Positions 1,563-34,156 of a DNA stretch of 35,993 nt are shown one piece after another. How positions within the stretch are numbered: position 1 is the first letter of the stretch; every line of letters starts with the position of its first letter. Source of the DNA: a virus (Duplodnaviria > Heunggongvirae > Uroviricota > Caudoviricetes); IMG/VR virus record IMGVR_UViG_2585427748_000014, positions 1-35,993 of that record. One strand, written 5' to 3'. The notes under the pieces are model-generated. The model saw only the letters and a list, made by a program, of their open reading frames with translations. It ran no database searches and was not told where the DNA came from. A program made the position numbers and the translations under genes.

Positions 1563-1775
1563 TTTTTCCTCCCTTGGTCTACGCGCGGTCATGTTTTACG
1601 CCCAAACGACTTCACAGTTATTGTTTAAAATCTGGACTTTCATTTCATACACCTGCTTTAACATGAGTGCCTAGTGGCACAACATGACTCAACGAATCAT
1701 CCTGGACTTCATATGCCCCAGGCGGCTACTTCGTGGGCGTCCTGCCTGTTCGTTATCTTTGATATAAAATCTAAC

Positions 1776-1839
1776 TTAACTTAGTTATTATGGCAAGAGA
1801 AAACACCAAACTTTTCTTAGTTCGGTGCCTTAGTTAGAG
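1776..1839. promoter_or_regulatory. OL-like operator cluster: three CTTAGTT motifs (1780-1786, 1816-1822, 1829-1835) just beyond the cI stop
   Basis: Same 7-mer as in the cI-cro intergenic sites, clustered on the other side of cI. Confidence 0.45.
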
Positions 1840-1849
1840 AAGAGAGGTC

Positions 1850-2476
1850 TTAGAGTTCGTATTGAACTCCTTTGACTACACCAATGATAAGGCAATTACC
1901 ATTGATAGGGATGTTGGGATACCGAGGATTTAATGGCACTAAAAACTTTTGAGGGCCATCGATGACTAATTTTTTTACTGTAGCTTCGTTTGTTCCATCA
2001 AGTCGAGCGATGACTATTTTTCCATGACGAGGTTCTGCATCTGGATCTACAATCACTGTTGCGCCTTCTGGTATTGTTGGGAGGCCATTAGGGTTAGTCA
2101 TGGAGTCACCTTTAACCTCTAATGCAAATGAGTTATCACCAATCTTTAATGATGTATCTACCCACTTGTCCACTTCACTAAACACTTCTGCTGCCCTGCA
2201 CTCAGTAAACTGCCCAGCCTGAACCCACGATATTACAGGAACTCTGCGCATGTTTGTGACGAGTTTGCCTTCAAACTCAGCACCATAAAGAATGTAATCT
2301 ATTGACGTATTGAAGAACTTCGCTAATTTCGAAAGTGCCTCCCCACCAGGGGTATTGATGTCTTTCTCCCAGTACCCCACAGCAACGTCGCTTACTCCAC
2401 AAAATTTACCCAATTCTTTCTGGGACGTTCCGGTAACTCTTCTCAGAGCTTTTATACGCTGACCAACCGTTTCCAT
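1850..2476 (-). CDS. cI: Prophage repressor, cI/LexA-like (N-terminal XRE-type HTH plus C-terminal S24 peptidase domain)
   Basis: 208-aa ORF; HTH segment QKELGKFCGVSDVAVGYWEK; C-terminal GDSM...KKLV consistent with a Ser-Lys autocleavage dyad; divergent from the Cro-like gene; no Shine-Dalgarno, consistent with a leaderless message. Confidence 0.9.
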   Translation of the reverse strand: METVGQRIKALRRVTGTSQKELGKFCGVSDVAVGYWEKDINTPGGEALSKLAKFFNTSIDYILYGAEFEGKLVTNMRRVPVISWVQAGQFTECRAAEVFSEVDKWVDTSLKIGDNSFALEVKGDSMTNPNGLPTIPEGATVIVDPDAEPRHGKIVIARLDGTNEATVKKLVIDGPQKFLVPLNPRYPNIPINGNCLIIGVVKGVQYEL

Positions 2477-2498
2477 AGGAGCACCATTTCTTGAATTG

Positions 2499-2562
2499 CT
2501 AAGTAATCTTAGTTTTTATTGACCAAAGATAGATTTGTAATTAGCATCTAATAAAACTTAGT
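2499..2562. promoter_or_regulatory. OR-like operator/promoter region between cI and cro: two 14-bp sites (2499-2512 CTAAGTAATCTTAG; 2548-2561 CTAATAAAACTTAG) and a candidate PR (-35 TTGACC 2519-2524, 17-bp spacer, -10 TAGCAT 2542-2547)
   Basis: Inverted-repeat sites carrying the shared CTTAGTT motif flank a sigma70-like promoter in the divergent intergenic region. Confidence 0.55.
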
Positions 2563-2573
2563 TTGGAGGGCGT

Positions 2574-2774
2574 ATGACAACTGACGATATCGAAAGCTAC
2601 TTCGGCAGTATTGAGAAAGTTGCTGCTTTTTTCGGCATAACAACTGAAGCCGTTTATCAGTGGCGAAACCGTCCGGGCCAGTTAATTCCAAAAGGACGTG
2701 CAGCAGAAGCTGCATATAGAACTTGCGGACGGTTGCCATTTAAACCTGAGCTTTATGAAAAATCTAATGGATAA
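2574..2774 (+). CDS. cro: Cro-like DNA-binding regulator (Cro/YdaS-type HTH)
   Basis: 66-aa ORF divergent from cI; GGAGG 4 nt upstream; HTH-like segment VAAFFGITTEAVYQWRNR. Confidence 0.75.
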   Translation: MTTDDIESYFGSIEKVAAFFGITTEAVYQWRNRPGQLIPKGRAAEAAYRTCGRLPFKPELYEKSNG

Positions 2775-3363
2775 ATCGATTAACAGAAACCACAGAACGA
2801 TGAGGCTAACCGTGGGTAAGCATCACTGGAAAGTAGAAAAACAGCCTGAGTGGTACGTGAAAGCTGTCAGAAAAACTATCGCAGCGTTGCCGGGTGGTTA
2901 CGCTGAAGCAGCTGACTGGCTGGATGTAACAGAAAACGCATTATTTAACCGTCTTCGTGCCGATGGCGATCAGATTTTCCCGCTGGGATGGGCAATGATT
3001 TTGCAACGTGCTGGTGGAACTCACTTCATTGCTGACGCTGTGGCGCAGTCTGCAAATGGCGTCTTTGTGTCTCTTCCTGACGTCGAGGATGTGGACAACG
3101 CCGATATTAACCAGCGCCTGCTGGAAGTCATTGAACAGATTGGCAGTTATTCCAGACAGATTCGTTCGGCAATCGAAGACGGTGTGGTGGAACCGCATGA
3201 GAAGACAGCAATTAACGACGAGCTGTATCTCTCAATTTCGAAGCTGCAGGAGCATGCAGCACTGGTCTACAAAATCTTTTGCATTTCAGAAAGTAATGAC
3301 GCCCGCGAGTGTGCAGCTCCGGGCGCCGTGGCGTGTCGTGACTGTGGAGAAACTAACGCATGA
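2755..3363 (+). CDS. Hypothetical early regulatory protein (possibly YdaT/CII-like); start uncertain (2755, 2767 or 2800)
   Basis: Long ORF immediately after cro; no strong Shine-Dalgarno, so translational coupling is possible. Confidence 0.45.
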
Positions 3364-3707: not shown

Positions 3708-4649
3708 ATGAGCACTAAATTAACCGGCTATGTATGGGATGGTTGCGCTGCATCAGGCATGAAATTATCCAGCGTGGCAATTATGGCCCGCCTGGCTGAT
3801 TTCAGTAATGACGAAGGTGTGTGCTGGCCATCAATTGAAACTATTGCCCGTCAGATTGGCGCGGGGATGAGTACCGTCAGGACGGCTATCGCACGGCTGG
3901 AAGCAGAAGGCTGGTTAACACGTAAGGCGCGTCGCCAGGGTAACCGCAATGCGTCGAATGTTTATCAGCTTAACGTTGCGAAGCTTCAGGCAGCGGCATT
4001 TTCTCAACTGTCAGATTCTGACCCGTCAAAATCTGACGCATCAAAATCTGACCCGTCAAAATTTGATGCGTCGAAATCTGGCAAAAAAGCGGGTTTTCAC
4101 CCGTCAGAATCTGGCGGGGATCCGTCAGTAAAATCAAAACATGATCCGTCAGATAAAAAACCTTCTCGTCCGGACGCTTCGCAACCGGACACGCAGACGG
4201 ATGAACAGGATTTTTTAACTCGCCATCCTGATGCGGTTGTATTCAGCCCTAAAAAGCGCCAGTGGGGAACGCAGGATGATTTGACCTGCGCACAGTGGCT
4301 CTGGAAAAAAATCATCGCCCTGTACGAGCAAGCCGCCGAATGTGACGGCGAGGTGGTTCGTCCCAAAGAACCGAACTGGACAGCCTGGGCAAACGAAATT
4401 CGCCTGATGTGTGTGCAGGATGGTCGTACTCACAAACAAATCTGCGAGATGTACAGCCGCGTCAGCCGCGATCCGTTCTGGTGCCGTAACGTGCTCAGCC
4501 CGTCGAAGTTGCGGGAAAAATGGGATGAGCTTTCCCTGCGCTTATCACCGTCCGTCAGCACGTACACCGAAAAACGCGAAGACCCGTACTTCAAAGCCAG
4601 TTACGACAACGTGGACTACAGCCAGATCCCGGCAGGATTCAGGGGGTGA
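3708..4649 (+). CDS. Replication initiation protein, O-like (N-terminal wHTH; internal linker encoded by iterons)
   Basis: AGAGG 6 nt upstream of ATG; N-terminal HTH segment; tandem 15-bp repeats inside the gene, as for lambda O/ori. Confidence 0.7.
   Translation: MSTKLTGYVWDGCAASGMKLSSVAIMARLADFSNDEGVCWPSIETIARQIGAGMSTVRTAIARLEAEGWLTRKARRQGNRNASNVYQLNVAKLQAAAFSQLSDSDPSKSDASKSDPSKFDASKSGKKAGFHPSESGGDPSVKSKHDPSDKKPSRPDASQPDTQTDEQDFLTRHPDAVVFSPKKRQWGTQDDLTCAQWLWKKIIALYEQAAECDGEVVRPKEPNWTAWANEIRLMCVQDGRTHKQICEMYSRVSRDPFWCRNVLSPSKLREKWDELSLRLSPSVSTYTEKREDPYFKASYDNVDYSQIPAGFRG
4009..4160. repeat. Iteron array (candidate ori): five tandem 15-bp repeats (consensus about CCGTCAAAATCTGAC, 4009-4082) plus three degenerate copies (4101-4115, 4122-4136, 4146-4160), ending in an A-rich tract
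   Basis: Direct tandem repeats read from the sequence; they lie inside the O-like gene. Confidence 0.75.
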
Positions 4650-4651
4650 TC

Positions 4652-5140
4652 ATGAGTCTTTTGAATGACGTTCAGAAATTCATTGAAGCCCATCCGGGGT
4701 GTACTTCCGGAGACATTGCAGATGCTTTTGCTGGTTACTCACGGCAGCGCGTTCTGCAGTCAGCAAGCAAGTTACGTCAGAGTGGGCGTGTGGCTCACCG
4801 TTGTGAAGGGGATACACGCAGACATTTCCCGCGCCTGACTGAGAGAGCGCAGGAGCCGGAACCACAACCAGTTCGTGAAACCAGACCTGTGCGCAATTTC
4901 TATGTCGGCACTAACGACCCCCGGGTGATTTTGTGCCTGACCCGCCAGGCTGAAGAACTGGAGTCCAGGGGCTTATTCCGTCGAGCTGCAACGGTGTGGA
5001 TGGAGGCATTCCGTGAAAGCCACTCCCAGCCAGAACGAAACAATTTTCTGGCGCATCGTGAGCGGTGCTTACGGAAAAGCAGCAAGCGCGCTGCATCGGG
5101 TGAAGAGTGGTATCTGTCAGGGAATTACGTGGGGGCTTAA
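4652..5140 (+). CDS. PerC-family-like transcriptional regulator (C-terminal PerC/Pch-like motif)
   Basis: AGGGGG 5 nt upstream of ATG 4652; C-terminal motif EELESRGLFRRAATVWMEAF resembles the PerC/Pch signature. Confidence 0.45.
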   Translation: MSLLNDVQKFIEAHPGCTSGDIADAFAGYSRQRVLQSASKLRQSGRVAHRCEGDTRRHFPRLTERAQEPEPQPVRETRPVRNFYVGTNDPRVILCLTRQAEELESRGLFRRAATVWMEAFRESHSQPERNNFLAHRERCLRKSSKRAASGEEWYLSGNYVGA

Positions 5141-5793
5141 TGAGTAATAAATATTGCCAGGCGCTGGTGGAGCTGCGAAACAAACCAGCCCATGAACTGA
5201 AGGAAGTGGGCGATCAGTGGCGCACGCCGGACAACATTTTCTGGGGAATTAACACCCTGTTTGGCCCGTTTGTTCTGGATCTGTTCACTGATGGTGATAA
5301 CGCCAAATGTGCCGCTTATTACACTGCGGAAGACAACGCGCTGGCGCATGACTGGTCTGAACGTCTTGCGGAGCTTAAAGGTGCTGCCTTTGGTAATCCC
5401 CCGTACAGCCGCGCCAGTCAGCATGAGGGGCAATACATCACCGGCATGCGTTACATCATGAAACATGCCAGTGCTATGCGTGATAAAGGCGGGCGCTATG
5501 TTTTCCTGATCAAAGCTGCCACCAGCGAAGTTTGGTGGCCGGAAGATGCAGACCATATTGCTTTTATTCGCGGGCGTATTGGTTTTGAACTGCCAGCCTG
5601 GTTTATCCCGAAGGATGAGAAGCAGGTTCCGACAGGAGCTTTCTTCGCTGGTGCTATTGCTGTTTTCGACAAGACCTGGAAGGGACCGGCAATCAGCTAC
5701 ATCGGGCGCGATGAACTTGAGGCATGTGGTGAGGCCTTTCTGGCGCAGGTTCGCCAGCAGGCAGAAAAACTGGTCAGGGAGATGGTGGCATGA
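5140..5793 (+). CDS. Phage DNA N-6-adenine methyltransferase (Dam-like)
   Basis: NPPY motif (GNPPYS); start overlaps the upstream stop (TAATG); GGGGG Shine-Dalgarno. Confidence 0.8.
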   Translation: MSNKYCQALVELRNKPAHELKEVGDQWRTPDNIFWGINTLFGPFVLDLFTDGDNAKCAAYYTAEDNALAHDWSERLAELKGAAFGNPPYSRASQHEGQYITGMRYIMKHASAMRDKGGRYVFLIKAATSEVWWPEDADHIAFIRGRIGFELPAWFIPKDEKQVPTGAFFAGAIAVFDKTWKGPAISYIGRDELEACGEAFLAQVRQQAEKLVREMVA

Positions 5794-6116
5794 CGACGTT
5801 AACTCAATGCCAGCAGCAGGTGCTGGATATGCTGATTTCTTATCAGAAAGAACGTGGCTTCCCGCCAACCAATCAGGAGGTGGCAACCATGCTGGGATAC
5901 CGTTCAGTGAATGCAGCGGTAGAACATCTTCGCGCACTGGAGAAAAAAGGCGTCATCACGATAAAGCGTGGCGTGGCCCGGGGCATCACGCTTCATACCG
6001 CGGTGAAGGACGACGACAGCGAGGCGGTCGGGATTATCCGCTCACTGCTTGTCGGTGAGGAAAACGCCAGGCTGCGTGCAGCCCACTGGTTACATGAGAG
6101 GGGCCTGAAAGTATGA
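5790..6116 (+). CDS. LexA DNA-binding-domain-like protein (no peptidase domain)
   Basis: 108 aa resembling the LexA N-terminal wHTH (QQQVLDMLISYQKERGFPPTNQEVATMLGYRSVNAAVEHLRALEKKGVI); ATGA overlap with Dam. Confidence 0.6.
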   Translation: MTTLTQCQQQVLDMLISYQKERGFPPTNQEVATMLGYRSVNAAVEHLRALEKKGVITIKRGVARGITLHTAVKDDDSEAVGIIRSLLVGEENARLRAAHWLHERGLKV

Positions 6117-32390: not shown

Positions 32391-32410
32391 CGCGGTTTTA
32401 TTTATTTTAC
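32376..32410. terminator. Bidirectional rho-independent terminator between convergent genes (ACCGCGC-AATA-GCGCGGT flanked by A- and T-runs)
   Basis: Perfect 7-bp GC stem with an A tract upstream and a T tract downstream. Confidence 0.75.
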
Positions 32411-33421
32411 TGCTAAAATTCGTTTTCTTAGCATCAGCTCTAAAGGCTCCTCAACTAATTTATAAAGTATGATTGAGACTATGGTTATTATAACAAGGAG
32501 CGCTATTAAATAGAGTGGTCCGGGGTTATGTCCAAAGATTTTAAAGCAAAATAATATAATGGGTTGATGAATTAAATAAAAAATAAATGATGATTTCCCT
32601 AATAGCTCTAGGGTTTTTGAACTGAGGATAGTATGAATGACTCCATTTCTTAGATAGATGCATGAAGTAAAGAATATTACCATGGGGAGTAAATAATATA
32701 ACGAATAACGTAGACTATTATTTATGTTGTTGCTATAATATATAGCTATTAGCAGAGGTAATAGTGAAATTAAAAACAAAAGGCTGTCGACTGTCTGCTG
32801 TCGGCTGTTTTTCCAGCAAGCGTAAATAATCATGCCGCAAATAAATTCTACCAAGCGGCTTACTGGGAATATATAATATAACCAGTGATTAAGTTCTTCT
32901 GTTTGTATAATTTTTAAAAAATATATAGTTAATAGTAGAGTTATAATTGATATTGCAGTGATTACTTTCTTTGTAATTGATGTATAAATCAACGGAATAA
33001 ACATTAAATAAAAAAACAGCTCATCAGACAAAGACCATGATACACCATTTAATGAGAAGTAGTAATCCTCCTTTGGTATCCAACTTTGCATTAATAAAAT
33101 ATTTGTTAAGGTTTTTGAAAAATCAAAGTTCTTTAAGTGAATGGTTAGTAAAATAAATGGCATGGCTAATAATAGATGCATTGGAACAATTCTTGCCAAT
33201 CTTAAAAGAATAAACTGTCTTTTACTTGTTACTTCATTTTTTAGCTTGTCTTCATATGAATATGAAAGAATGAAGCCAGATAAAATAAAGAAAAAGGAAA
33301 CGCCAATAAATCCCTGGGAAAACATTTCTTTTACAAAAACACCAAAATAGTCTGTATTTAAATGGCATAAATAAACCATTAATGCAGCTATAAATCTGAG
33401 TCCTGTTAAGTGGCGAAGCAT
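32402..33421 (-). CDS. Acyltransferase family 3 membrane protein (O-antigen acetyltransferase-like conversion gene)
   Basis: ATG at 33421 with AGAGG Shine-Dalgarno; N-terminal motif RHLTGLRFIAALMVYLCH typical of acyltransferase-3; about 10 predicted TM helices; A+T-rich. Confidence 0.8.
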   Translation of the reverse strand: MLRHLTGLRFIAALMVYLCHLNTDYFGVFVKEMFSQGFIGVSFFFILSGFILSYSYEDKLKNEVTSKRQFILLRLARIVPMHLLLAMPFILLTIHLKNFDFSKTLTNILLMQSWIPKEDYYFSLNGVSWSLSDELFFYLMFIPLIYTSITKKVITAISIITLLLTIYFLKIIQTEELNHWLYYIFPVSRLVEFICGMIIYACWKNSRQQTVDSLLFLISLLPLLIAIYYSNNINNSLRYSLYYLLPMVIFFTSCIYLRNGVIHTILSSKTLELLGKSSFIFYLIHQPIILFCFKIFGHNPGPLYLIALLVIITIVSIILYKLVEEPLELMLRKRILAVK

Positions 33422-34156
33422 CAATAACCTCTTGTTATGAAGATAAAGCAATTCAAAAGAGGCATTTTATGACTGTAGGGGATTGGTGTCTATATGAATG
33501 AGTAATCTGGTTTTTAAAATCTTCTTTAATTACAAAATAAACCTTTCTTAGGCTATAGATTTGTGGCTGTAACACTGTGTGTCCACGACATTGAGACATC
33601 CTTCCGCTTTGCTATAGATGTGGAATTCAGGATCAAGCGATATCGGACTCATCCTCAGCACCACCCGGTTAATCTGGATAACGGGAGAAGGGAAGCGCTG
33701 CCAGAAGATGATGATGGTTACAGTTCTGCACTGGCTATTCTGCACTGGCTATATTCGTGGTGATCACTTACATAATTAATGACGCCAGGAATACGGAGTT
33801 TGATGATTGCCTGGTGATGTGAGAAAAAACTCATACACACAAAGCTTTGCACTGGATTGCAAGGCTTTGTGCTATTCGATAGCACGAGTTTGAATGAAAA
33901 TCAGCCGTTATCGATTTTACGTATTTTTGTATGAGAGGATTTTTACCTCCTCCCACCGATCCTCCATAACTTTACGACACTGTCTCTAGGACTGCTATGT
34001 GCCAAGAGCGGAATTTTCTAATATTATGCTGCATTCGTTTAAGGGGAGCAGATCAGCTAACGACTCCTACGTCCTGGGGAAAGGTCACATATGCTAAACA
34101 GCAGCTCAGCAAAGAGAAGAGCGAATTTGGTAACGGGAAACCGTTATGATATGAAT

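Follow-up and report, generated by a model that had tools for sequence, protein, structure and literature searches.

A probable P22-type immunity switch with its own operator motif in an SfV/SfII-like prophage of Escherichia coli

The window analysed here, by which I mean the whole stretch of 35,993 bp, contains the immunity region of a lambdoid prophage, in agreement with a preliminary description that had pointed to an immunity switch around a cI gene; this gene has HTH_3 and Peptidase_S24 domains, and it is accompanied by a divergent cro gene of the P22_Cro family. The genes at the centre of this region are the following.

1850..2476, minus strand: cI repressor, 208 aa, with the Pfam domains HTH_3 (1e-10) and Peptidase_S24 (9e-28)
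2574..2774, plus strand: cro, 66 aa, Pfam P22_Cro (4e-11), transcribed divergently from cI
2812..3363, plus strand: cII-type activator of the YmfL / Phage_CP76 family (Pfam Phage_CP76, 9e-14), downstream of cro

The Cro protein is 30% identical to P22 Cro, and its gene is preceded by the Shine-Dalgarno sequence GGAGG (2565-2569), with a duplex energy of -9.8 kcal/mol against the anti-Shine-Dalgarno sequence. The GTG start of the cII-type gene at position 2812 was taken from the annotation of phage vB_EcoM-689R6, and this gene is followed by an O-like replication gene. The backbone of the prophage is SfV/SfII-like, as in phages of E. coli and Shigella. The cI-cro module recurs at 94-100% identity in the phages vB_EcoM-689R6, vB_EcoS-569R4 and mEp460_4F5, and at 76% identity in phage LLS. 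Of 5,426 complete E. coli genomes, 513 contain at least 80% of this 1.2-kb module.

The cI protein aligns with the P22 c2 repressor over 205 amino acids at 47% identity (BLASTP, E 2e-65). Its N-terminal domain matches the P22 c2 structures 1adr, 2r1j and 3jxb (approximately 2e-9), and its C-terminal domain matches the structures of lambda cI (E 1e-27), with VQAG, GDSM and KKL in register. The alignment places VQA87-G88QF of cI opposite VQA111-G112MF of lambda cI, GDS125M opposite GNS149M, and K168 opposite K192; the S24 domain has the Ala-Gly site for cleavage as well as the catalytic pair of Ser and Lys. The S24 peptidase domain that had been noticed initially is thereby borne out. As Ala87-Gly88, Ser125 and Lys168 are all present, it is plausible that cI is SOS-inducible, a conclusion that draws on the conserved self-cleavage residues and on the homology to P22 c2 and lambda cI.

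The motif CTTAGTT occurs five times in the window, each time on the plus strand (1780-1786, 1816-1822, 1829-1835, 2508-2514 and 2557-2563), in two clusters that flank the repressor gene, exactly as first reported; the last copy ends one base past the region as it was then delimited. The total is ordinary for 36 kb of DNA, with 2.93 copies expected and at least five in 16 of 100 shuffles. The placement is another matter. All five copies fall within the 354 nt of non-coding DNA around cI, made up of 257 nt reaching to the next leftward open reading frame and 97 nt reaching to cro. In dinucleotide shuffles of these flanks alone, the motif is found 0.10 times on average and three times at most, and none of the 20,000 shuffles contains five or more copies. 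By this measure the clustering goes far beyond chance. As a control for the post-hoc choice of the motif, I counted how often any 7-mer reaches five copies in shuffles of the cI flanks, which is the case in 14 of 3,000. The flanks have a G+C content of 39%, as against 51% for the window.

CTTAGTT is one half, and the better conserved one, of an 18-bp operator AACTAAG-N4-CTTAGTT, of which the general form is A-N-C-T-A-A-G, 4 bp, C-T-T-A-G-N-T. When every 18-mer of the window is scored against AACTAAG-N4-CTTAGTT over 14 positions, only the sites here named OL1, OL2, OR3 and OR1 score at least 11/14. Five sites fit the looser 18-bp form A-N-C-N-A-A-N, N4 and its mirror image. These putative operators and the signals among which they lie are listed here; no strand is given for the operator sites.

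1768..1796, minus strand: PL-like promoter, TTGCCA-17-TAGATT, reading leftward (promoter scan 9/12)
1769..1786: OL1, ATCTAAC-TTAA-CTTAGTT, over the PL -10 and spacer (12/14)
1800..1831, minus strand: intrinsic cI terminator, composed of a 13-bp hairpin and a U-rich tail
1805..1822: OL2, ACCAAAC-TTTT-CTTAGTT, upstream of the PL -35 and inside the cI terminator hairpin (11/14)
1829..1835: third CTTAGTT beyond the cI stop; site 10/14, left half 3/7, overlapping OL2 by 5 bp
2497..2514: OR3, TGCTAAG-TAAT-CTTAGTT, the operator nearest cI, holding the predicted PRM -10 (12/14)
2506..2511, minus strand: predicted PRM -10, TAAGAT, inside OR3, placed by homology with P22
2519..2547, plus strand: PR-like promoter, TTGACC (2519-2524)-17-TAGCAT (2542-2547) (promoter scan 9/12)
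2522..2539: OR2, ACCAAAG-ATAG-ATTTGTA, a degenerate middle operator over the PR -35 (9/14)
2546..2563: OR1, ATCTAAT-AAAA-CTTAGTT, kept in relatives (12/14)

In the gap between cI and cro, the two CTTAGTT copies had been described as parts of the 14-bp inverted repeats CTAAGTAATCTTAG (2499-2512) and CTAATAAAACTTAG (2548-2561), which bracket a PR-like promoter. These repeats are present, and the promoter is indeed found between them. The right operator is nevertheless not bipartite as was supposed, for the middle site OR2 had been missed. The distance is 25 bp between OR3 and OR2 and 24 bp between OR2 and OR1. Since 46 other 18-mers in the window equal the score of OR2, I call it an operator on account of its position and conservation and not of its score. 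Its position is kept in the relatives and coincides exactly with that of OR2 in P22; some of the relatives have better half-sites, with ACCTAAG in mEp460 and CTAAT..ATTAG in Rahnella as examples. The core of OR3 is near-invariant in 19 relatives, in the register of the annotated P22 OR3. OR1 extends over the final 2 nt of the PR -10 and over the predicted PR start. The promoter itself, equivalent in position to the annotated PR of P22, retains TTGAC and a TAnnAT -10 in the relatives. Conservation is high throughout OR, and per-column information content across the 19 OR regions does not separate the half-sites from the DNA between the sites (means of 1.5 and 1.4 bits, respectively); because promoters overlap everything in this interval, conservation alone cannot tell the operators from the promoters.

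On the other side of cI, OL1 is essentially invariant in the relatives from Enterobacter, Kosakonia, Kluyvera, Rahnella and Serratia, and its geometry matches that of P22 OL1. The PL -35 reads TTGACC or TTGACA in relatives, and the promoter is equivalent in position to the annotated PL of P22. OL2 lies 36 bp from OL1 in the window. Its left half is poor (4/7), and CTTAG is kept in most relatives. The relatives from Yersinia, Providencia and Proteus have a clean palindrome at OL2, at a distance of 34 bp from OL1 and without a terminator hairpin, and in the lineage of E. coli and Enterobacter the left half has decayed to ACCAAAC. The hairpin at 1800-1831 folds as RNA with -15.1 kcal/mol (z = -2.6) and shows a compensatory stem change, from CACC/GGTG to CATC/GATG, in phage LLS and in the Enterobacter relatives. 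On this evidence the hairpin is the predicted terminator of cI, which would stop maintenance transcripts before the PL operon, and by itself it could explain part of the conservation of OL2.

All three CTTAGTT copies that had been reported beyond the cI stop are present, but only two of them lie in sites conserved among relatives. At the base of the terminator stem lies the third copy, which is changed to TTTTGGTT in mEp460 and missing from most relatives. As a candidate operator I rejected it for this disruption, for its lack of conservation and for its poor left half, and it is probably not an operator. A search for an OL3 at the distance equivalent to that in P22, 29 bp beyond OL2, gave a best site of 7/14, which was rejected as well.

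Directly downstream of PL, on the minus strand, lies a structured RNA of approximately 75 nt (1687-1761) that is common to SfV, SfII, mEp460 and many other phages, irrespective of their immunity type. Covariation in this RNA is strong: both sides change in 10 of 16 pairs, and 96.6% of the cells are paired, compared to 19-41% in slid controls. No Rfam family matched it, and a comparison with putL and putR of HK022 by blastn-short and a covariance model gave no match.

The comparison with P22 bears directly on the question of which protein recognises these sites. The repressor of P22 contacts operator positions 2-7 and 12-17 and leaves the central four base pairs uncontacted (PMC4267663). Half-sites in P22 have the form A-N-T-N-A-A-G and those in the window the form A-N-C-N-A-A-N; position 3 is T in 11 of 12 of the former and C in all ten of the latter. 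Even OR2 follows this rule, with ACTAAAG in both halves of the P22 site and ACCAAAG in the window. The exchange of T for C at this position (3C) abolishes specific binding by the P22 repressor, which binds such an operator only non-specifically (PMC4267663). The recognition helix differs as well, with SDVAVGYW in the cI of the window versus SNVAISQW in P22 c2, and Cro shows a parallel change (TEAVYQW versus SDAAVSQW).

To follow this pattern across other genera, I scanned one genome per species for relatives of cI. Twenty relatives with a cI 63-90% identical to that of the window, from Enterobacter, Kosakonia, Kluyvera, Serratia, Rahnella, Yersinia, Rouxiella, Providencia and Proteus, carry the helix GVSDV[AST]VGYWEKD, and all of them have CTAAG/CTTAG upstream of cI at the same positions; sixteen of them have no more than one TTAAG/CTTAA pentamer in this region. 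Six relatives from Photorhabdus and Xenorhabdus, with 41-46% identity, have instead the P22-like helix GVSH[VA]A[IV]SQWEKE, and upstream of their cI genes there is no CTAAG at all, but five to six TTAAG/CTTAA pentamers (6 of 6); as in P22, OR3 abuts the ATG in this group. In 19 diverged immunity regions, with cI proteins 63-90% identical, the operator cores are conserved and do not shift in position; these regions span nine other genera and the E. coli phages mEp460 and LLS. The operator motif thus switches together with the recognition helix, and this is strong comparative evidence that the CTTAGTT inverted repeats are operators bound by the adjacent cI. From the C at position 3 and the SDVAVGYW helix, the phage is probably heteroimmune to phages of the P22 type.

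The start of the cI transcript can be approached by the same homology. TAAGAT, the -10 hexamer of P22 PRM, occupies the identical position within OR3 and lies 30 nt upstream of the cI ATG. All 19 of 19 relatives keep the two spacer bases of OR3 that complete it, AT, whereas the remaining two bases of the spacer vary. The predicted PRM -35, ATCTAT, is poor. In the P22 record, the 5' nucleotide of the RM transcript lies 6 nt downstream of the PRM -10 and 4 nt before the c2 ATG. If this distance from -10 to start is applied here, the cI transcript begins at approximately 2500 and has a leader of about 24 nt (2500..2477). Most likely, then, cI mRNA from PRM starts near 2500, with a leader of some 24 nt carrying a weak Shine-Dalgarno sequence, GGUG. 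A PRM with lambda geometry (OR2 at -41.5; TGGTCA-18-TAGCAA) and a start around 2489 is possible, but weaker than the placement by homology with P22; under either placement the leader would measure 13-24 nt.

The preliminary description had the cI mRNA leaderless and its ATG without any Shine-Dalgarno sequence. The latter was overstated. GGTG lies 5 nt upstream of the ATG and is kept in the closest relatives, and its energy against the 3' end of 16S rRNA, -6.7 kcal/mol, is within the top 15% of random 20-mers (compared to the value for cro given above). More distant relatives have AGGAG, GGCGGA or GAGAG before the cI ATG. A PRE transcript could likewise make use of such a sequence. I looked for a -10 in the manner of lambda that would place the start on the ATG itself, and the only candidate is AATGGT at -12 to -7, with three of six positions matching, which I rejected. 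Between OR3 and the cI ATG there are approximately 22 nt in the window and 22-35 nt among relatives (19 of 20), versus none in the P22 clade. As this spacing varies, a transcription start set at a constant distance from the operators cannot fall on the ATG throughout the clade. With no -10-like hexamer at the right distance, with TAAGAT 30 nt upstream and with GGTG conserved, the claim of a leaderless message does not stand up well, and I regard it as unlikely.

Taken as a whole, this is very probably a switch of the immC type, organised like that of P22 and with a leadered cI mRNA, in a temperate SfV/SfII-like prophage of E. coli. A dimer of cI, with its c2-like helix-turn-helix domain and its self-cleaving S24 C-terminal domain, would bind the 18-bp operators. 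In the cI-cro gap, OR3, OR2 and OR1 would cover PR, and OR3, from the homology with P22 and lambda, would hold the PRM -10. Given this arrangement, cI on OR1 and OR2 would shut off cro and the lytic genes, and at a high level of cI the occupancy of OR3 would limit the synthesis of cI itself. The leftward early operon would be shut off from OL1, over the PL -10, and OL2, upstream of the -35. Cro, being a member of the P22_Cro family, may use the same operators as cI. Upon DNA damage, RecA would stimulate self-cleavage of cI at Ala87-Gly88. A literature search, which included mEp460, 689R6 and P22 c2/PRM, returned no binding, transcript-mapping or induction study of this immunity type.

Alternatively, the switch could resemble that of lambda: a pair of operators would bracket PR, three more would lie beyond cI, and the cI mRNA would begin at the ATG, without a leader. 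There is indeed no AGGAGG-type sequence in front of this ATG, and AATGGT, which a few relatives have as well, does agree with a -10 at A2 and T6. Moreover, near-leaderless repressor mRNAs do occur in the P22 family, as the PRM transcript of P22 starts just 4 nt before the c2 ATG. However, it is in the P22-like clade that OR3 abuts the ATG, not here, and among the relatives the block of operators and promoters is fixed while its distance to the ATG varies. The invariant P22 -10 hexamer 30 nt upstream, the conserved GGTG with its duplex energy and the sequences AGGAG, GGCGGA and GAGAG of the relatives all speak for a leader. An OR2 exists, furthermore, and the third copy on the left is not conserved. 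A lambda-like arrangement of this kind seems to me quite improbable.

A narrower doubt concerns the downstream cluster (1805-1835), which may be mainly the cI terminator, with CTTAGTT kept there for RNA structure or by descent and OL1 as the sole working left operator. The 13-bp hairpin with its U-rich tail, its folding energy and z-score, and the compensatory stem change in LLS and the Enterobacter relatives would all fit such a reading, as would the weak left halves of OL2 and of the third copy. Against it, CTTAG lies largely in the loop of the hairpin and is kept while adjacent loop bases vary, and the Yersinia, Providencia and Proteus relatives keep a clean palindrome at the same distance from OL1 where there is no hairpin; P22, too, has its OL2 at the same 35-bp distance. 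Operator and terminator functions can also coexist. I consider this reading of the cluster rather unlikely. The most sceptical view would have the repeats arise by chance in AT-rich intergenic DNA, or serve as sites of another protein, such as a host nucleoid protein, unrelated to cI. The low G+C content of the flanks and the unremarkable count over the whole window are in its favour. Yet composition-matched shuffles never reproduce the cluster, the sites are conserved at fixed spacing across ten genera, the motif switches with the recognition helix of the repressor, and the register is identical to that of the experimentally defined operators of P22. This view is effectively refuted, and I hold it to be exceedingly improbable.

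If the immC-type switch is accepted, two of its features may be read jointly. The module would be a naturally occurring variant of the repressor and operator of P22 with altered specificity, in which the single contacted position 3 has gone from T to C in every half-site and Ser36-Gln37 of the helix to Gly-Tyr; Cro shows a Tyr in parallel, and switches that are otherwise collinear preserve both states. OL2, in turn, would form part of the loop and of the 3' arm of the cI terminator, such that repressor occupancy and termination share the same 18 bp. I offer this combined reading tentatively, as it has in my estimate slightly less than an even chance of being right. If true, it would provide a ready-made system for how helix-turn-helix repressors shift to a new immunity specificity. 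With P22 it would form a clean natural pair for the study of repressor and operator co-evolution, though not a new kind of switch. Operators, promoters and a likely induction route are now defined for an immunity type found in about one tenth of complete E. coli genomes. Its carriers include mEp460-like gut phages. These assignments help to predict inducibility and immunity to superinfection, and they are of modest practical value.

The immunity regions of SfV and SfII have the same neighbours as that of the window, namely YfdP/YfdQ, a YmfL-type cII and an O-like replication protein, and they share the layout of cI, terminator and PL with a leader RNA downstream of PL. Their cI and cro alleles are different, however, and only the flanks align, at 91-97%; the operators of SfV and SfII differ from those of the window because these alleles differ. 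With lambda the window shares a homologous cI C-terminal domain, a tripartite OR, divergent PR and PRM and a left operator controlling PL. The DNA-binding domain and the operators, which measure 17 bp in lambda, are unrelated. Unlike in lambda, OL lies about 0.7 kb from OR, without rexAB in between, and whereas the cI mRNA of lambda is leaderless, that of the window probably is not.

The closest likeness is to immC of P22, which the region matches nearly to the base. Both have 18-bp operators of the form 7-4-7 with the core AAG-N4-CTT, and the OR sites are spaced 25 and 23 bp apart in P22 and 25 and 24 bp in the window. In both, the PR -35 (TTGACT in P22, TTGACC in the window) overlaps OR2, the PR -10 overlaps OR1 by 2 nt, and TAAGAT takes the same place within OR3. 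The left operators lie directly beyond the stop codon of the repressor gene, c2 or cI, with OL1 covering the PL -10 (TAGATT in the window), the PL -35 between OL1 and OL2 (TTGACC in P22, TTGCCA in the window) and a distance between these two sites of 35 bp in P22 and 36 bp here. There are also differences. P22 has OL1-3, while two OL sites and no OL3 are recognised in the window; OR3 and the ATG are separated by approximately 22 nt here and by nothing in P22; in the window, unlike in P22, OL2 and the cI terminator are fused; the activator gene downstream belongs to the CP76/YmfL type and not to that of P22 c1 and lambda cII; and no counterpart of the N-like gene 24 of P22 is recognised in the window. 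What defines a c2-type switch is found here, that is, homology of the repressor over both domains, 18-bp operators and the OR/OL layout, but not the immunity specificity of P22 itself, with its T at position 3 and its SNVAISQW helix. The architecture is that of P22, and the immunity group is probably a different one, because position 3 is C and the helix is SDVAVGYW.

The early-left transcript carries a conserved structured RNA at its 5' end, directly downstream of PL, the predicted leftward early promoter just beyond the cI stop codon:

1687-1761, minus strand: structured RNA, about 75 nt (covariance model and covariation)

The elements of this RNA are an outer stem, a mini-hairpin (GGC/GCC) that does not vary, the conserved single-stranded stretch CACGAAGUAGCC, and a hairpin that shows covariation and has the loop GGCAUAUGAAG. 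Ten of its 16 base pairs are changed on both sides, and paired cells amount to 96.6%, versus 19-41% in slid controls. The element is found in SfII, SfV and mEp460, as well as in relatives from Kluyvera, Kosakonia, Yersinia, Photorhabdus and Xenorhabdus, and it is present there regardless of immunity type. In a scan, at least 120 viral contigs carried it. Of the 78 sources searched with its covariance model, 76 scored 73-101 bits, and two loci have a second, weaker copy. Rfam holds no family for this RNA, and comparison with putL and putR of HK022, and also with P22, gave no match. In some relatives a boxA (GCTCTTTAACAA) is located further downstream. The RNA may function in processive antitermination, in the manner of put, or else as a leader element.

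An Rfam match to the gammaproteobacterial sRNA STnc100 (RF02076; 930-1152, minus strand) also falls in the early-left region, with the YfdP-like open reading frame on one side and the small open reading frames on the other. At 48.5 bits it only just exceeds the gathering score of 47.

On the rightward side, the first ATG of the cII-like (YmfL/CP76) open reading frame, at 2800, is not preceded by a Shine-Dalgarno sequence (duplex energy -0.3 kcal/mol). An in-frame GTG at 2812 is preceded by GAGG, and in phage vB_EcoM-689R6 (689R6) the annotated start is the equivalent GTG.

Downstream of the O-like replication gene, two genes follow in order, and a LexA-like protein is encoded nearby:

4646-5140, plus strand: protein with a PerC-family activator domain (domain match)
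5140-5793, plus strand: phage Dam-type N6-adenine methyltransferase
5790-6116, plus strand: LexA-like protein, 108 aa (PF01726, 3e-19)

The last of these, also annotated as 'LexA-like protein' in 689R6, consists of the LexA DNA-binding domain alone, without the S24 cleavage domain. Such a protein could bind SOS boxes and yet not be open to cleavage, and this may bear on the interplay of the prophage with the host SOS response.

After the tail genes, and on the opposite strand to them, one further gene is present:

32402-33451, minus strand: acyltransferase, Acyl_transf_3 family (family match 2e-30)

It is probably a lysogenic-conversion gene whose product modifies the O-antigen, as in the SfV/SfII group.
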